A stretch of DNA of 64,000 nt from a virus, in IMG/VR virus record IMGVR_UViG_3300029908_000007, positions 98,309 to 162,308 of that record. One strand, written 5' to 3'. The notes beneath the pieces are model-generated. The model was not told the origin of the DNA and did no database searches. It saw only the letters and a program-made list of their open reading frames with translations. The position numbers were made by a program, and so were the translations under genes. Below are positions 34,120 to 60,380 of this stretch, one piece after another. How positions within the stretch are numbered: the stretch's first letter is position 1; each line of letters opens with the position of its first letter.

Positions 34120-36096
34120 TTAGACATCACAAATTCCACCGGCACAGGCCAAGCTCTTAGCGCCTTCGGTGTTATCGTCGGTTTCGTATTTACCAAGTTG
34201 GGTATAGTCGATTTTAGGGAAGGCCTTGGCCATTTTGTCGTACTCTTCCTTGGTGATCTTCTCGTATGGAGGTTGCTCATATACATGATCCTTCACTGGC
34301 AAGAAGGATATTCCATTAACGATCTCCCAATTCTTGTATACCCAATCACCTACCGATAACCATTCTTCGGGCTTAATATAAACCGTAATACTAGCGTTAT
34401 GCTCACACCAGTTCTTCTGGATCTTTTTATAGTGCTCTAGTTGATCCAGAGCCGTCACATCTTCGATCGTAATAGCATTCTTGGGAGCCGCCACTGGAAA
34501 CGAGACAATCCACGTATTTACTTTGTCTGGGCTCCATCCATCGGGATCAAAGATCGGACATTCGGCTCTAGCTTGTTTAAGTCCTTCTAACTTGTTTTCT
34601 GCGGCATCGTATAATCTGATGGCTTTGACATAGTCTTGTTTACGTTGCCCATTTTCAGGTGAAACCGGAAGACCCTGATCTTTGATCATTCGAAAAAGAG
34701 GGTCACTTCCGGAAATGCGATATCTGCGGATATAGTATTTTGCAAATCTCTGGTGTAGGCCCGAAGAAGAGTCCACCAATTGGGAGACCGTTCCGCTAGG
34801 TTTCACGCAGGTAATAGCGGCTGGCATTGGAATTCCCATAATCTCCGAAGCCTTCTTGGCGACTTTCAAAGCTTTGGCCTTATATGCTTTGAGTGCTTCT
34901 TTGGTGAATAAATGGGGGGCATCGAATTGTCCGGTAATAGAAACTCCGAGCAAGCGCTCTTCATCACAGTTCTGTTTCCATTTAGGATTCAAATATGGAA
35001 AATTGGTAAAACATGCTTGTATAATTCCCATCCAGGTAGCGGTCTCTATCTTTTCTAGCATAGTTCCGATATCATCGTCTGCGCGTGCCACTACTTCGGA
35101 AAGATTGCAAAACTGTTGATTTCTAAGGAGAATTTCAAAGCATGGATTTGCCCCTAATATCAAGGATTTGTCCCGTCTCTTTGGCGCCATTTCTCTGGCA
35201 GCTTCCAGATTACAGATTCCTCGTTCTCCGGAACCCGATGCGATTAGGGAACTCCATTCATTCATAAATGTGACGATATCTGGTTTGGAATAATATACAG
35301 CGGAATTATTGGCCATGTGTCGCCTAACTGGAAAATTTCCAGACTTGGCGTCTCGCATTTCTTTGTCGTTAAGATCAGAAAGACTTATTTCTGACGAGCG
35401 CCGAACTCCTCCAACTACGACGATCTGAGCAATCTCACACATAATGTCGTGACACTCTAATGACGTAAGTTTTCTACCCCTAGCATGATGGAATACGTCC
35501 TTGATAAAATAGTGCAGCTGTGCCAACGGACCTGGACCACTAGCACGTCCGCCCATAGTCTTAAGCCTTGCTCCTGCTGGTCTGATCTTGTTGTATCTCA
35601 TTTCTAGATCTTGGCCGGAATACAAGGCATTAATTAAAAGCTTAATAGAGTCCGCCCAGCCGGTTTTTGAGTCTTCGACTTCATGAACTTGACCGCTTGG
35701 AAAGATCTGGTCGGACACAACAGGAAGCAAGCTAACGTATTTATTTTCAACTGAGAACCCCGCTCCGGAACCGCACATTAGAATATACAGGGCTTCGGCA
35801 AATGCGTCGGGGTTGTCCACAGCTCCAAAAGAGCAGTTGTAGATAGTCGTATTGTCTTGTTGAGCAGGCTTTCCTGCGGCCCAGAGGAAACGCATTGAGG
35901 GCATCACACCAAAGGAAAGAATACCTTCTTGGATTTTTCTGAGAACTTTGTCTGGGATCTTGTCTCCTAGATTGGACTGTACGAAATCCATATATCTCTG
36001 AACTGTTTCTGGCCAATTTTCTCGTCTTCTTTCTTCTTCTAGCCAACGCGAATATGTGCGAACGTAAACGAACTCCGAAGCGGGGGAACGAAACAT
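34120..36096 (-). CDS. nrdJ: Class II (B12-dependent, monomeric type) ribonucleotide reductase
   Basis: RTYSRW, PSMR, YNC, VGGVRRS, NPCFEI, TCVKPSGT motifs; C-terminal CAGGIC. Confidence 0.92.
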   Translation of the reverse strand: MFRSPASEFVYVRTYSRWLEEERRRENWPETVQRYMDFVQSNLGDKIPDKVLRKIQEGILSFGVMPSMRFLWAAGKPAQQDNTTIYNCSFGAVDNPDAFAEALYILMCGSGAGFSVENKYVSLLPVVSDQIFPSGQVHEVEDSKTGWADSIKLLINALYSGQDLEMRYNKIRPAGARLKTMGGRASGPGPLAQLHYFIKDVFHHARGRKLTSLECHDIMCEIAQIVVVGGVRRSSEISLSDLNDKEMRDAKSGNFPVRRHMANNSAVYYSKPDIVTFMNEWSSLIASGSGERGICNLEAAREMAPKRRDKSLILGANPCFEILLRNQQFCNLSEVVARADDDIGTMLEKIETATWMGIIQACFTNFPYLNPKWKQNCDEERLLGVSITGQFDAPHLFTKEALKAYKAKALKVAKKASEIMGIPMPAAITCVKPSGTVSQLVDSSSGLHQRFAKYYIRRYRISGSDPLFRMIKDQGLPVSPENGQRKQDYVKAIRLYDAAENKLEGLKQARAECPIFDPDGWSPDKVNTWIVSFPVAAPKNAITIEDVTALDQLEHYKKIQKNWCEHNASITVYIKPEEWLSVGDWVYKNWEIVNGISFLPVKDHVYEQPPYEKITKEEYDKMAKAFPKIDYTQLGKYETDDNTEGAKSLACAGGICDV

Positions 36097-40079: not shown

Positions 40080-40205
40080 AACTCTGGCCTCGTGTCCGCT
40101 TCTAAATTCTAACCTCAGGTACGAAAGATTTCGGTGTCATCGTGACACCGTTGCTTTCACGGCACCTGATCGCTTTTTGACCGTAGTCAAAATGCTAGCC
40201 GTTCC
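40080..40205 (-). ncRNA. Predicted TnpB omegaRNA scaffold and guide overlapping the gene 3' end
   Basis: TTTTGAC-TACG-GTCAAAA hairpin; TCAGGTGC/GTACCTGA stem enclosing GAAAG/CTTTC and CGGTGTCA-CGA-TGACACCG. Confidence 0.6.
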
Positions 40206-41222
40206 CTTCAGAGCTATGTTCTTTGCCGCATTTACGTCGGCATGGAACGCGCTTTTACACGCGGTACAACTAAATGTACCATTCGTTCTACTCCGCTTGT
40301 CTACGTGGTTACAACTGGAACAGGTTTGACTAGTATATGCTGGATTTACTGTCCATACAAACACTTGTTCTTCCTGTGCTATTTGCTCACAACGACTTGC
40401 AAAGTAAGTTCTCGCCCACCCCTGAAGCTTTCCGCTTCGGAGATTGGCGATCACTTTTGGGTCTTCAACTACTAGATTCCACCCGTTTAGCTGTGCGACG
40501 CGCACCGCTCGACGGGCTTCAACATCAAGTATTTGTTTTAAATTTGTTTTAGTAGAATCGGATTTAAAGTGTTGGCCTTTTAGATTAGCTTGTCTTTGGC
40601 GTTCCGCTTTTTTAAGTCTTTGTTTTTTAATAACAACTGAGGTGTTCTGGCCAACATAGCCGTCACTACGAGCGACAGAATTACGATAGCCGACATCACA
40701 GCCCAGGCTTTGTTTCTTAGGGTGTGCTTTTTCAACTTCTTTTTGAACAAAGACTAAGGCATAGAATTTGCCGTTCTTATCTTTTACGAATTCACAAACA
40801 GGGTTGAGCGCGTAACCGCGCTTTAACCACTGATTTAATCTTTTATGACTTTTTACGGGAAGTAAGGTTTTTTTATTACTAAATTGGCTCTCAACTTTTA
40901 ACCAATAGTCGAAGATAGAATCTTTTGAGACTTCGATGGCTGCTGGGCAGCCAATGAAAGCTATTTTAGGAACGTTGGATTTATTATCGGTAGCCTTAGT
41001 TGCCGCACGGTGTGCGGCTAAGATGTTTCTAGCACGATGCTGGGCTTTGTTAGCAAGTCCTCCCATACCCGAAGTACTCAATGCCGCGCCATGGGGCGCA
41101 AAATAGAGTTGAGTTACAAAGTGTTGGGCATAAAGCAAATGTTTTTCATAGGTATACCTGGCCGCGTCGAGTTTCGACACGTTGGGGAAGATCGCTAGTT
41201 TTAAAGCTCTAGTAACTAACAT
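40137..41222 (-). mobile_element. tnpB: TnpB (IS200/IS605-family RNA-guided nuclease), no TnpA in the window
   Basis: RuvC-I GCDVG, RuvC-II VVED, NPAYTSQTCSSC...CTAC Zn finger, RuvC-III HADVNAAKNI; D-E-D triad intact. Confidence 0.9.
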
Positions 41223-41453: not shown

Positions 41454-42392
41454 TCACTTTACGATAGTTTCTGTCAAGGAAAAGTTCCTCACCCTGGTCA
41501 CAAACTCCGAAAAATCGTCATCCGTGCATCCCATATTGAGTCTAATCCATTCATTGGTCGATCCAAAGGCTTCTCCGCCGATACCCGTAACCCCGGCCTT
41601 GGCGAAATACTCGGCACGCTTCTCCCACAAGAAAATGCCATCCCTAACCTGAAAGCCTAGATCGCCTAAGATCTTCCACCTGTAGTTCATAACAGCCCGA
41701 CCTAGCTCCATAACGTTGACATCGCTTACCCAATGGTGTATAAGTACCTGGTAGGCTTTGTTCTGGGCTTCAATGCTGACACCACAGGTCTGGTATTCGA
41801 TGAACTTCCGCATCTTGGCGGCGACTTCGGGGTCTTTAACCAAAGCCCATCCCAGGCGAGTGCTGGCGTGGCCCGTGGCCTTGGATAGGCTAAACACCAT
41901 TAAGTCCTTGTCGGTCTTCATAGCATCGCCGGTTCTAAAATATTGTTGCCAATTATAACAATAATCATAGATAGTCGGGATCTTTGAACCCAACCTCTGC
42001 AGCCATTCTCCATCGGGGTTGTTTGGGCAGGTTGCGATTTCAACATCGGCGTTTTCATAATTTCGGACAAAATTGGCGCCTGCCATGTTTGCCATATCGG
42101 GGAAACGCATGAAATATGGGGGTGAAGCGTATACATGTTTGGCGCCTAAAGCACTAATCGCCGCCTGAATGACCTGCGTGGCACCATTGGCTATCACGAT
42201 TTCGTGGTCCGTCGCATGGGGTCCAAACACGTTTTGTTCTTTGTAATGCAACATACGGATGGCTTGGATGAGTTCGGGTAGGACAATTGCGTATGATAAA
42301 TCCTTATCCAAGGCGTGCGTCATGGGTGGCAGATTCTTCCAGAACGGATATAAAAAGTAGGTGTTACCCCAGCCGAGTTCTAGTGTGTTCAT
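41454..42392 (-). CDS. PLP-dependent aminotransferase of the alliinase/TAA1 family
   Basis: GATQVIQAA, PNNPDG, YDYCYNW, FSLSKATGHASTRLGWALVKD (PLP lysine), GVSIEAQ. Confidence 0.8.
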   Translation of the reverse strand: MNTLELGWGNTYFLYPFWKNLPPMTHALDKDLSYAIVLPELIQAIRMLHYKEQNVFGPHATDHEIVIANGATQVIQAAISALGAKHVYASPPYFMRFPDMANMAGANFVRNYENADVEIATCPNNPDGEWLQRLGSKIPTIYDYCYNWQQYFRTGDAMKTDKDLMVFSLSKATGHASTRLGWALVKDPEVAAKMRKFIEYQTCGVSIEAQNKAYQVLIHHWVSDVNVMELGRAVMNYRWKILGDLGFQVRDGIFLWEKRAEYFAKAGVTGIGGEAFGSTNEWIRLNMGCTDDDFSEFVTRVRNFSLTETIVK

Positions 42393-54012: not shown

Positions 54013-54256
54013 GTGGTTTCTCCTCTAGATCCAAGTTCTTGGAGAATGGCTTCTAGCTGACCCGCTTTCTTGTGAAAATCTTCTAGGATTGAAAAATAGA
54101 GATCTCTTAAGGTCTCATCATCTGCTAAGTCAAGTTCCCAATCGCATTCTATTATCTTAAATAGACTCATAATCCCAATCCTCGGTCCTCTAATCGGTTA
54201 AAGCAACTTAGACTAAAATTAAGCCAAAGCCAGCGCACACTGCTCACCACGAAACC

Positions 54257-54295
54257 AGGATATAACAGGGTTTGGGGAATGTCAAGAACTATTTT
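54257..54295 (-). promoter_or_regulatory. sigma70 promoter of the AAAATAGTTCTTGAC family
   Basis: AAAATAGTTC-TTGACA-17-TATCCT. Confidence 0.7.
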
Positions 54296-54926
54296 AGTAA
54301 CCGTCGTCTTCGTCAGGCGGCTTAGGAGCGGGAAGTGGTTGGATTCTATGAGTAGGTAGTTCAAACTCAATATCTTTGTTTTTACAGTATTCCATGAGTT
54401 TGTCGACATCTAAAGGTGCTGGTACGCGCTCCAACACGCCCTCATAGTAATCGTGGCATTGATCGACATAGCACCAGGTTCCATCTTCTAAACGATCATA
54501 CATGCCGTAATAACGTGTGGTTAGTAGTTGATCGGAAGCCAAGGGGTGTCGGATCTCAACCGTGGTTCCAGTATAAGGTTTGTCATGGAATGAGTAAATC
54601 CTAAACTTGCCTTCGTTAAAATATAGAGAAATGCTAAAATTTGGAAATAGTTCTTCGAGTTCTTTTTTGATGGTTTCTTCGAGTTCTTTGGTATCTACAT
54701 TTAGGGGAAGTTTGAGAGCTTTAAGTATTTCTTTGGAAACCCACATCGAGCCCATGGTTAGTTCTTTGTCGATAATAGTTCGTAGGACGTTGTCATCCAT
54801 GGCGATGCGGAGCTGTTTATCGATGATCCTGTGGGTTGAAACATTGGCTAAAGTCGGACTCCAACTGCCGTCTTCGTCTAGGATTACTTGAATTTTAAGT
54901 CTAAGGTTTCTCATACCGTAAGTCAT
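54294..54926 (-). CDS. Hypothetical protein
   Basis: 210 aa, coupled. Confidence 0.55.
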   Translation of the reverse strand: MTYGMRNLRLKIQVILDEDGSWSPTLANVSTHRIIDKQLRIAMDDNVLRTIIDKELTMGSMWVSKEILKALKLPLNVDTKELEETIKKELEELFPNFSISLYFNEGKFRIYSFHDKPYTGTTVEIRHPLASDQLLTTRYYGMYDRLEDGTWCYVDQCHDYYEGVLERVPAPLDVDKLMEYCKNKDIEFELPTHRIQPLPAPKPPDEDDGY

Positions 54927-55204
54927 TGGTTCCCTTCTATCCTTTCCAACGCCGTCCTAGCTGGGCCCAAGTAGCTTAATGCGTTAAGAGCGTGTACGGC
55001 GATACTAAGTTTGTCTTCAAGCCTCATTCGGCCTTTCTCGCATTCCCAGCTTTCAAGACCACATTCGGATCTGTCTTCCACGGCCTGGGCGTAACCCCAA
55101 CGAGCACCTTCTTTGAAATTATACTTGGCGGTAGTTCGGGAATCGATAAAAGTATCGGAACCAGCTTTTTCAGCGGCATCTCGCAGCTTATTCTCATCGA
55201 TCAT
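54923..55204 (-). CDS. Hypothetical protein
   Basis: FKEGARW motif common in phage small proteins. Confidence 0.5.
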   Translation of the reverse strand: MIDENKLRDAAEKAGSDTFIDSRTTAKYNFKEGARWGYAQAVEDRSECGLESWECEKGRMRLEDKLSIAVHALNALSYLGPARTALERIEGNQ

Positions 55205-55392
55205 GAAAAAATCCTCTTAATAGCCAGCCAAGCGCCCTTAAGTGCTAACAAAGTAAGAAGTAGCGGCCATATAAAAAACCAGGCAAGGTTTTCTGCTGAG
55301 GGATGCTTGCTGTCTTCGCTTAGTAAGGCGCAGAAAAAGCCGATGGCTATATAGCCTATAATTGTTAGGGCAATGATTTGATCCATATTCAT
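55201..55392 (-). CDS. Small membrane protein
   Basis: AGGAG RBS; two TM helices with FIWP. Confidence 0.55.
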   Translation of the reverse strand: MNMDQIIALTIIGYIAIGFFCALLSEDSKHPSAENLAWFFIWPLLLTLLALKGAWLAIKRIFS

Positions 55393-55406
55393 AAATCTCC
55401 TATATA

Positions 55407-55584
55407 TGCAAGGGCTGCTCGCGACTGCAGCTCAGATTGGACCCAAGATCATCTGTTCCGATCGGACTCAGCCAACTAGCCTGCTTGGGCGCTAGTTGTT
55501 GCGCATCTTCCGACTCGTGCGTGTCTCCAGCGGGATGCGAAGTAAGCCTCGCCACCTTCCCGCAGCTTCCCACGCCGCCTTGCC
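55407..55584 (-). ncRNA. Structured, tRNA-shaped ncRNA with kissing loops
   Basis: Closing stem GCAAGG/CCTTGC, GCGTG/CACGC arm, CAACTAGC/GCTAGTTG and CAGAT/ATCTG hairpins with complementary loops, GCTGC/GCAGC arm; predicted TSS at the 5' stem. Confidence 0.7.
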
Positions 55585-55589
55585 TAACT

Positions 55590-55628
55590 AGAGTATAACA
55601 GGGGGAATCAGAAGTCAAGAACTATTTT
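55590..55628 (-). promoter_or_regulatory. sigma70 promoter of the AAAATAGTTCTTGAC family (drives the ncRNA)
   Basis: AAAATAGTTC-TTGACT-17-TACTCT. Confidence 0.7.
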
Positions 55629-55662
55629 GGGGCGTAAGCCTTTCCGGGCTGAGCCGGGGGTT

Positions 55663-56280
55663 TCATAACCCCAGCACGTCTCTAATGGGAAAATCTTTTA
55701 AGTCCTGGTCTCCTAGGATATAACAACGGTTGTGCGCGGGGACTTCGAGATAAGCTTTTCTCAGCTCTTCCAGATTGGATTTGGAGGGATCCAGGATGTA
55801 GCTATGGTAGGCGTCAAAACAGATTTCAGAAGCCGATTTATTACCTAGTCCGACGTGAACCGCGTCTAAAACGGCTTTGACGAAGTCGGCTTGGGTTATC
55901 CATTTATGAGCAAACATCAGACCGCCGTCTTTTCGTAAGGTCTTGGCCTGCGTGAATACAAAGCCTTGATCGCCGATCCTAACTTCGGTTCCATCGGGGA
56001 CGTCTATGGTAATCCAGCCCGAAGACGTTTTAGCCAAAAATTCGGCTTTATCCATTGGCCCCCAACATTCGATGCCGCCGCCTTCGAAGACTTTAAGAGT
56101 GGTTAGGTAGTAGTTCGTGTTATGGATAAAACAGTAGGTTTCAAAGATACAGTCTTTACCGGGATAGTAGTATATCACAAATCTAACTATTGCTGGTAAA
56201 ACGACAAAAGTGACAAATGTTGGGTTCCGTAAATTTTCCGGAACAGGTGTAATGGTTGGAAGCGGCAGCGCTAGTCCCAT
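55663..56280 (-). CDS. Hypothetical protein resembling the domain found N-terminal to some NADAR proteins
   Basis: FIHNTNYYLTTLKVFEGGGIECWG...SGW...YLEVPAHNRCYILGDQDLKDFPIR; true start uncertain. Confidence 0.45.
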   Translation of the reverse strand: MGLALPLPTITPVPENLRNPTFVTFVVLPAIVRFVIYYYPGKDCIFETYCFIHNTNYYLTTLKVFEGGGIECWGPMDKAEFLAKTSSGWITIDVPDGTEVRIGDQGFVFTQAKTLRKDGGLMFAHKWITQADFVKAVLDAVHVGLGNKSASEICFDAYHSYILDPSKSNLEELRKAYLEVPAHNRCYILGDQDLKDFPIRDVLGL

Positions 56281-59908: not shown

Positions 59909-59966
59909 TGCCCTTGGGTCCCTGCCCTTGGGTCCCTGCCCTTGGGTCCCTGCGGCGGCGGCGGCG
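59909..59966. repeat. 3 x 14-bp tandem repeat followed by (GCG)n
   Basis: TGCCCTTGGGTCCC three times, exact. Confidence 0.9.
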
Positions 59967-60104: not shown

Positions 60105-60120
60105 TGGCACCGATTCTGCA
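60105..60120 (+). promoter_or_regulatory. sigma54 promoter
   Basis: TGGCACCGATTCTGCA upstream of the cold-shock gene. Confidence 0.75.
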
Positions 60121-60146: not shown

Positions 60147-60380
60147 ATGAAAACAGTAAATGGTAAAGTAAAATGGTTTAACTCGTCGAAAGGATATGGC
60201 TTCATTGACTCCGAAGGCACTGGTGAACACATTGACATTTTTGTTCACTATACCGCTATAGCTGGCGAAGGCTACAAGGAATTGCAGGAAGGCGAAGTTG
60301 TGACTTTCGACTTGCTAGACGGGCCAAAGGGTCCCCAGGCTTTGAACGTGGTTAGACAAGGCTCGGCACTGACGGCCTAA
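60147..60380 (+). CDS. csp: Cold-shock domain protein
   Basis: [21 protein letters not shown] and KGPQALNV motifs. Confidence 0.95.

Follow-up and report, generated by a model that had tools for sequence, protein, structure and literature searches.

Stem-loops at the 5' terminus are known to stabilise mRNAs, as in the E. coli ompA leader and in the 5' stabilisers of Bacillus aprE and phage SP82. These elements consist of one or two hairpins, or of a ribosome-binding purine tract, and present a helix at the very 5' end that is followed by an open ribosome-binding site (RBS). Long structured 5' UTRs are also carried by the mRNAs of the type I toxins tisB, zorO and hok, the lysine riboswitch combines a five-way junction with an L2-L3 kissing contact that is also found in the purine riboswitch, and T4-type phages contain promoter-containing shuffling cassettes (PeSL). 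Here we describe a GC-rich stretch of an uncultured phage genome that may act as a functional, structured leader in cis, possibly as a 5' stabiliser. We put the probability of this reading at roughly 0.4.

The window analysed, a stretch of 64 kb whose first letter is position 1, is the last part of a 162,308-bp IMG/VR virus record with a CheckV completeness estimate of 98% and a genome GC content of 43.9%. All features below lie on the minus strand of the window unless stated otherwise. Identical copies of the locus are found in several JGI metagenome assemblies from peat (3300031788, 3300031261 and 3300031524), and none of the metagenome copies of the leader locus differs from the others. The phage also has a class II (B12-type) ribonucleotide reductase-like gene (34120-36096) and an alliinase/aminotransferase-family gene (41454-42392).

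A sigma70-type promoter precedes the stretch. Its UP-like upstream block and -35 box, AAAATAGTTC-TTGACT (55613-55628, with TTGACT at 55618-55613), were recognised by their recurrence in the genome, and the -10 region at 55590-55599 can be read either as TGT-TATACT, an extended -10 with a 15-nt spacer, or as TACTCT with a 17-nt spacer, which is the promoter family's own spacing. With either choice the predicted transcription start falls ~7 nt past the hexamer, from A55585 to G55583 and 0-2 nt before the closing stem P1; an earlier note on this DNA had placed the predicted start on the first stem base. A start 2-3 nt further in would shorten P1. A scan for consensus promoters missed this one because of its 15-nt spacer and weak -10.

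The block AAAATAGTTCTTGACTTC, an 18-mer that ends at the -35 box, occurs exactly or as close variants in seven copies in the 162-kb genome, at window positions 55628, 54295, 51325, 47267 and 38467 and at genome positions 61373 and 70687 (both on the plus strand). The copies comprise the conserved upstream block and -35 box, followed at 15-17 nt by a -10 hexamer; the -10 hexamers of the family are weaker in this phage. Five of the six other copies lie 20-30 nt before an RBS and ATG, and the copy at 54295 has a leader of ~85 nt. This longer leader (54171-54262, before a gene for a 53-aa protein) is not GC-rich and folds no better than its shuffles (z = +0.59). Beyond this genome, the 17-mer AAAATAGTTCTTGACWT, which covers upstream block and -35 box, has matches in IMG/VR on at least 120 further stretches, which come from many environments. 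Among the matches listed it is almost always followed by TATAAT at 17-nt spacing after the -35 box, and there are often 2-3 copies per contig, which points to a widespread sigma70-type promoter with an upstream block. Several groups of loci carrying AAAATAGTTCTTGACWT have conserved leader sequences in common downstream of the 17-mer. Of the whole finding, the predicted promoter has the strongest support.

The anatomy downstream of the fold is that of a small operon. P1 ends at 55408 and is followed by AUAUAU, by the Shine-Dalgarno sequence AGGAG (55401-55397) and by ATG codons at 55392 and 55386. The Shine-Dalgarno sequence sits in an AU-rich linker 6 nt past P1 and, in an ensemble predicted with downstream sequence included, is only partly paired. 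The first gene (55201-55392) encodes a protein with two hydrophobic segments (predicted two-TM) that has 63 aa if translated from the earlier ATG and 61 aa in the JGI gene call, from the ATG at 55386, which has the better spacing. Genes for proteins of 93 and 210 aa follow (54294-55204), each start overlapping the preceding stop (ATGA), and the next copy of the promoter family (54257-54295) forms the downstream border of the cassette. The interval from the fold to the Shine-Dalgarno sequence contains neither a U tract nor any terminator-like site, and the stretch should therefore be a 5' leader rather than a separate gene. Most likely it is an untranslated mRNA leader of ~185-190 nt, and it appears to be the physical 5' leader of a cassette bordered by two promoter copies. 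The suggestion in the earlier note of a large leader for the membrane gene fits this arrangement of family promoter, missing terminator and ATGA-overlapping genes. On the other side of the promoter lies a DUF7638/DUF7639 open reading frame (55663-56280) of 205 aa; 15 of its homologues have 167-180 aa and align from about residue 33-50 onward, and translation of this frame probably begins at an internal codon, not at the ATG overlapping the endonuclease VII-like gene that lies upstream.

The earlier note had described a set of helices and two loops, and reading the sequence directly we found all of them, and the promoter, in place on the minus strand. The same five-helix architecture was recovered by RNAfold on 55407-55584 (-71.2 kcal/mol), where the minimum free energy (MFE) and centroid structures both agree with it and the pairing probabilities of the stems are mostly at least 0.95 (about 0.95-1.0). 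The predicted domain spans 55408-55583 at 61% GC. It is closed by the 6-bp stem P1 (GCAAGG 55583-55578 with CCTTGC 55413-55408). The first arm is built from P2 (GCGTG 55575-55571 with CACGC 55523-55519), P2a (GCGGGA 55563-55558 with TCCCGC 55535-55530) and P2b (GCGAGG 55552-55547 with CTTCGC 55542-55537), and the second from P3 (TCGGA 55513-55509 with TCCGA 55466-55462) and the 8-bp hairpin P3a (55498-55491 with 55480-55473), which closes loop 1, GCCCAAGCAG (55481-55490). P4 (CAGAT 55455-55451 with ATCTG 55437-55433) closes the 13-nt loop 2, GATCTTGGGTCCA (55438-55450), and P5 (GCTGC 55431-55427 with GCAGC 55418-55414) carries the 8-nt loop AGUCGCGA. The first 40 nt of the leader (55545-55584) are very G-rich, with many GG and GGG runs, and a two-tetrad RNA G-quadruplex is formally possible there as an alternative to P1 and P2.

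The earlier note had also proposed a 7-bp kissing interaction between the two apical loops. The complementarity is present: GCCCAAG of loop 1 (55490-55484) can pair with CTTGGGT of loop 2 (55447-55441) through six Watson-Crick pairs and one G-U pair. An energetic preference for the contact did not emerge. RNAfold closes part of both loops with local pairs, among them two G-C pairs in loop 1 of the MFE structure, and the kissing pair is possible but not clearly favoured over these local pairs in the model, because opening both loops costs 8.5 kcal/mol and the isolated loop-loop duplex yields -10.2 kcal/mol before any pseudoknot penalty.

In the reading that we prefer, host RNA polymerase would start at the sigma70-type promoter of the AAAATAGTTCTTGACWT family, and the first bases of the transcript would pair with the last bases of the leader to form P1 and, in vivo, a closed, GC-rich five-helix domain. 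An exposed, AU-rich ribosome-binding site would follow 6 nt after this domain. With a helix right at its 5' terminus, the mRNA would be protected from the 5'-end-dependent decay pathways of RppH/RNase E or of RNase J-type enzymes, and the translation start region would be kept free of upstream pairing; a role in binding a protein or ligand is also possible. Given where the stretch lies, and that it has no 3' end signal, a leader acting in cis is the most economical reading. Counting against it, a single 5' hairpin would suffice for a stabiliser, which leaves five helices unexplained, and the fold is no more stable than shuffles of equal composition.

The comparison with dinucleotide shuffles gave a z-score of -1.06 for the MFE; 25 of 200 shuffles folded as stably or more so, and the opposite strand folded about equally (z = -1.27). 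Loop-loop complementarity of at least 7 was reached by 2% of 1000 dinucleotide shuffles under an identical loop definition, and 15% matched the energy of the native loop-loop duplex. An end-closing stem of at least 6 bp appeared in 9% of shuffles, a figure that is biased because the earlier note had set the ends of the element at that stem. The mean base-pair distance of the ensemble was 16, compared with 41 ± 16 in shuffles, so that the fold is better defined than 94% of them (6% tail). Overall, this test of the fold against chance is marginal, and there is weak evidence for anything special about the fold itself. The one clear signal of the leader is its composition: with 61% GC versus 43.9% for the genome, it ranks among the highest 0.4% of windows of 178 nt. 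Other GC peaks of this kind are nearly all located inside long open reading frames, and the leader is among the few outside.

These figures bear most directly on the main rival to a functional leader, namely that the stretch has no specific RNA function and is mere spacer DNA rich in GC, or the remnant of foreign DNA, its helices being those that any sequence of this length would form at 61% GC. The folding energies of both strands and the loop-loop duplex energy are what such a spacer would give, and the search for homologues points the same way. Searches with blastn against 50,697 phage records returned no match. Within the genome only the promoter block recurs, and a covariance model (R1) built from the structure in the earlier note, run with its filters off, found no second copy in the window. 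The upstream DUF7638/DUF7639 gene has 16 homologues; on their contigs the next gene either immediately adjoins, leaving no gap, or differs, and the lack of any neighbour in common marks the region as highly mosaic. Neither R1 nor nhmmer found anything credible on these contigs and 18 metagenome loci, a 17-bit match in a coding region of a 69% GC contig being judged spurious, and R1 had no match on 80 loci that carry the promoter 17-mer (635 kb). Together the related and promoter-sharing loci searched amount to ~820 kb, and these searches are of limited reach. Exact and purine/pyrimidine-degenerate patterns for both loops, P2 and P5 gave 0 matches in viral and genome collections.

The proteins of the operon offered no further route to a relative of the leader. 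The 61-aa protein is without relatives, the sole other member of its cluster being the 63-aa alternative-start form, and IMG/VR contains none for the two proteins of 93 and 210 aa. A library of 1.84 billion proteins yielded 17 distant homologues of the 210-aa protein, all in other gene contexts, and the RNA fold is absent from their loci. Nothing specific on such an element was found in the literature. The leader thus appears to be a singleton in the data reachable here; with no homologue in any set searched, nothing shows selection on the helices.

Several observations nevertheless sit poorly with a spacer or relic devoid of RNA function. In phages, spacers without coding function are usually short and rich in AT, as the 20-30 nt that separate most other promoters of this family from their genes illustrate, and the fold is well defined and reaches almost exactly from the start site to the RBS. 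The complementarity of the loops, found at this length in so few shuffles, also speaks against it. We regard a stretch without specific RNA function as a serious, if doubtful, alternative.

Translation of the membrane-protein operon could instead be controlled through P1 by a regulatory aptamer, be it a riboswitch or an operator that binds a protein, with a loop-loop contact compacting the fold as in the lysine and purine riboswitches. The multi-helix junction closed by a P1 that adjoins the RBS is in keeping with this idea, as are the complementary loops. An open P1 would free CCU of its 3' strand for pairing with AGG of the Shine-Dalgarno sequence; in predictions that take in downstream sequence, the 5' strand of P1 can pair instead with UUGCC in the coding region (5 bp). 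The alternative pairing with the Shine-Dalgarno sequence is, however, 3 bp only, and there is no terminator. True riboswitch classes are widespread, whereas this sequence is a singleton. The search of Rfam that the earlier note had proposed matched no described family: Rfam 15 had no match at the gathering threshold in the 64 kb, with riboswitches, ribozymes, YrlA, HEARO/omega RNA and the cspA leader among the models, and at E values up to 10 the best match in 55300-55700 was a eukaryotic lncRNA model, at 25 bits versus a threshold of 70. An aptamer is, on this evidence, improbable.

Other classes of structured RNA were considered and set aside. Retron msr/msd RNA and the RNA of diversity-generating retroelements (DGR) were excluded because the genome lacks a reverse transcriptase: PF00078 had no match in the 162 kb, and control genomes were positive. 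For a TnpB omega RNA the only TnpB-like gene is 14 kb distant. A TnpB-like 361-aa open reading frame with a Cas12f1-like TNB domain lies at 40137-41222. An attenuator based on an intrinsic terminator would need the U tract that is missing here, and a type I toxin-antitoxin locus was rejected on finding no plus-strand promoter-like site in 55300-55650 and a stop of the open reading frame that overlaps the next start.

The other reading offered by the earlier note was a tRNA-mimic or decoy RNA, and this failed the tests applied here. ARAGORN found 0 tRNA or tmRNA genes in the window and 0 in the whole 162-kb genome, and the Rfam result for the locus was equally negative. P1 has 6 bp rather than 7 and runs on into AUAUAUAGGAG, with no discriminator base or CCA. 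The third pair of P1 is A-U and not the G-U of a tRNA-like domain, and the 8-nt P5 loop AGUCGCGA has no U-N3-A register, unlike the 7-nt UUCRANY T-loop. Judged by these features the leader is not a tRNA mimic.

More generally, the leader could be processed into a stable RNA acting in trans, whether as a tRNA mimic or decoy, as a scaffold, or as a regulator that uses loop 1 to pair with CUUGGGU sites at other places. A compact closed domain could survive as a processing product, and candidate partner sites exist. The loop 2 9-mer CTTGGGTCC occurs three times in tandem at 59913-59949 on the plus strand, within 3.2 perfect tandem copies of TGCCCTTGGGTCCC (59909-59953, plus strand) that are followed by (GCG)5. 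Since the 9-mer is contained in the repeated unit, loop 1 is complementary to these repeats too. The array belongs to a GC-rich non-coding stretch of 284 nt, reaching 67% GC, that lies ahead of a cold-shock-domain gene (60147-60380), and a sigma54-like box, TGGCAC-N5-CTGCA, lies at about 60105-60120. The repeats may not be transcribed, because they lie ~150-200 bp upstream of this box. The leader moreover has no 3' end signal, and its tRNA and tmRNA features fail. An RNA acting in trans is in our view unlikely.

The same 9-mer invites two further readings. Exact copies of CTTGGGTCC number seven at five loci of the genome, compared with 0.8 expected, with the 9-mer having been picked after the fact. 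With one mismatch allowed, 16 copies were found versus 11.4 expected, which is no enrichment. The flanks of the copies have nothing in common, and two copies lie inside genes. The sharing could reflect a common protein-binding DNA motif, an RNA-RNA link or coincidence. In the most ambitious form of the RNA-RNA link, the leader would belong to a new class of compact phage RNAs, its two apical loops serving as a kissing switch subject to regulation, with GCCCAAG of loop 1 pairing either in cis with CUUGGGUCC of loop 2 or in trans with the cold-shock repeats or other CUUGGGY sites. We consider such a switch very unlikely; were it real, expression of the membrane-protein operon would be linked to another early unit.

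Alternatively, the complementarity of the loops might have nothing to do with RNA and mark an inverted pair of CTTGGG(Y) sites, 36 bp apart, for a DNA-binding protein whose targets also include the CTTGGGTCC repeats ahead of the cold-shock gene. The excess of exact copies would suit this explanation, as would the placement of one locus, a perfect tandem array, in a promoter-upstream region. The excess nevertheless belongs to a word chosen after inspection and vanishes with one mismatch, and the surroundings of the copies, two of them in genes, differ, so we hold a protein-binding DNA motif to be highly improbable.

Finally, it is scarcely credible that the 72-aa open reading frame at 55400-55618 encodes a protein. 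The frame is open over the whole GC-rich stretch, but at 61% GC we estimate a chance of ~10% per frame for an open frame of this length. Its start codon, a TTG, falls within the -35 box and would thus be missing from the promoter's transcript, and no ATG further inside the frame has an RBS. The frame was left uncalled by JGI in the 3 copies fetched, no sequence in a database of 5.8 billion proteins shares words with it, so that it has apparently never been called as a gene, and its codon-usage score is -0.06 bits per codon versus +0.12 to +0.21 for the neighbouring genes. By these measures the frame does not look coding, and the stretch is best taken as non-coding.

A functional fold would make the leader an unusually large, self-contained 5' domain of a phage early mRNA, one without described relatives. 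It would then be a candidate stabiliser, insulator or sensor acting in cis, of interest both to the study of phage gene control and as a part for synthetic biology. At present it is one sequence whose folding energy is at chance level. The solid results are the annotation of promoter, leader and operon and the removal of the tRNA-mimic idea, and the widely shared promoter 17-mer AAAATAGTTCTTGACWT may be the more generally useful by-product.

Set beside the described systems, the predicted leader resembles several of them in part. Like the lysine and purine riboswitches it has a multi-helix junction with P1 just upstream of the RBS and a possible kissing pair between neighbouring hairpins, but it differs from them in having no Rfam match, no conserved family, no terminator and no convincing sequestration of the Shine-Dalgarno sequence, and the kiss is not energetically favoured. 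With the tRNA-like domains of tmRNA (TLD), YrlA and viral RNAs it has in common a closing stem, a 5-bp hairpin directly before the 3' strand and the lack of an anticodon arm; it departs from them in the 6-bp rather than 7-bp stem, the missing discriminator and CCA, the missing G3-U70 pair and an 8-nt loop without a T-loop pattern. As in type I toxin mRNAs, a long structured leader precedes a gene for a small hydrophobic protein, yet here the gene for the 61-aa, two-segment protein is translationally coupled to two more, and neither an antisense promoter nor an sRNA was found at the locus. The likeness to the PeSL of T4-type phages concerns the cassette and not the RNA fold: in a mosaic region, a repeated early-type promoter block (55628 and 54295) borders a cassette of orphan genes, with no conserved stem-loop beside the promoter copies. 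Compared with the 5' stabilisers of ompA, aprE and SP82, the leader is a far larger object, a predicted 176-nt five-helix domain. It would nonetheless share with them the helix 0-2 nt from the predicted 5' end, the accessible RBS after the leader and the action in cis.
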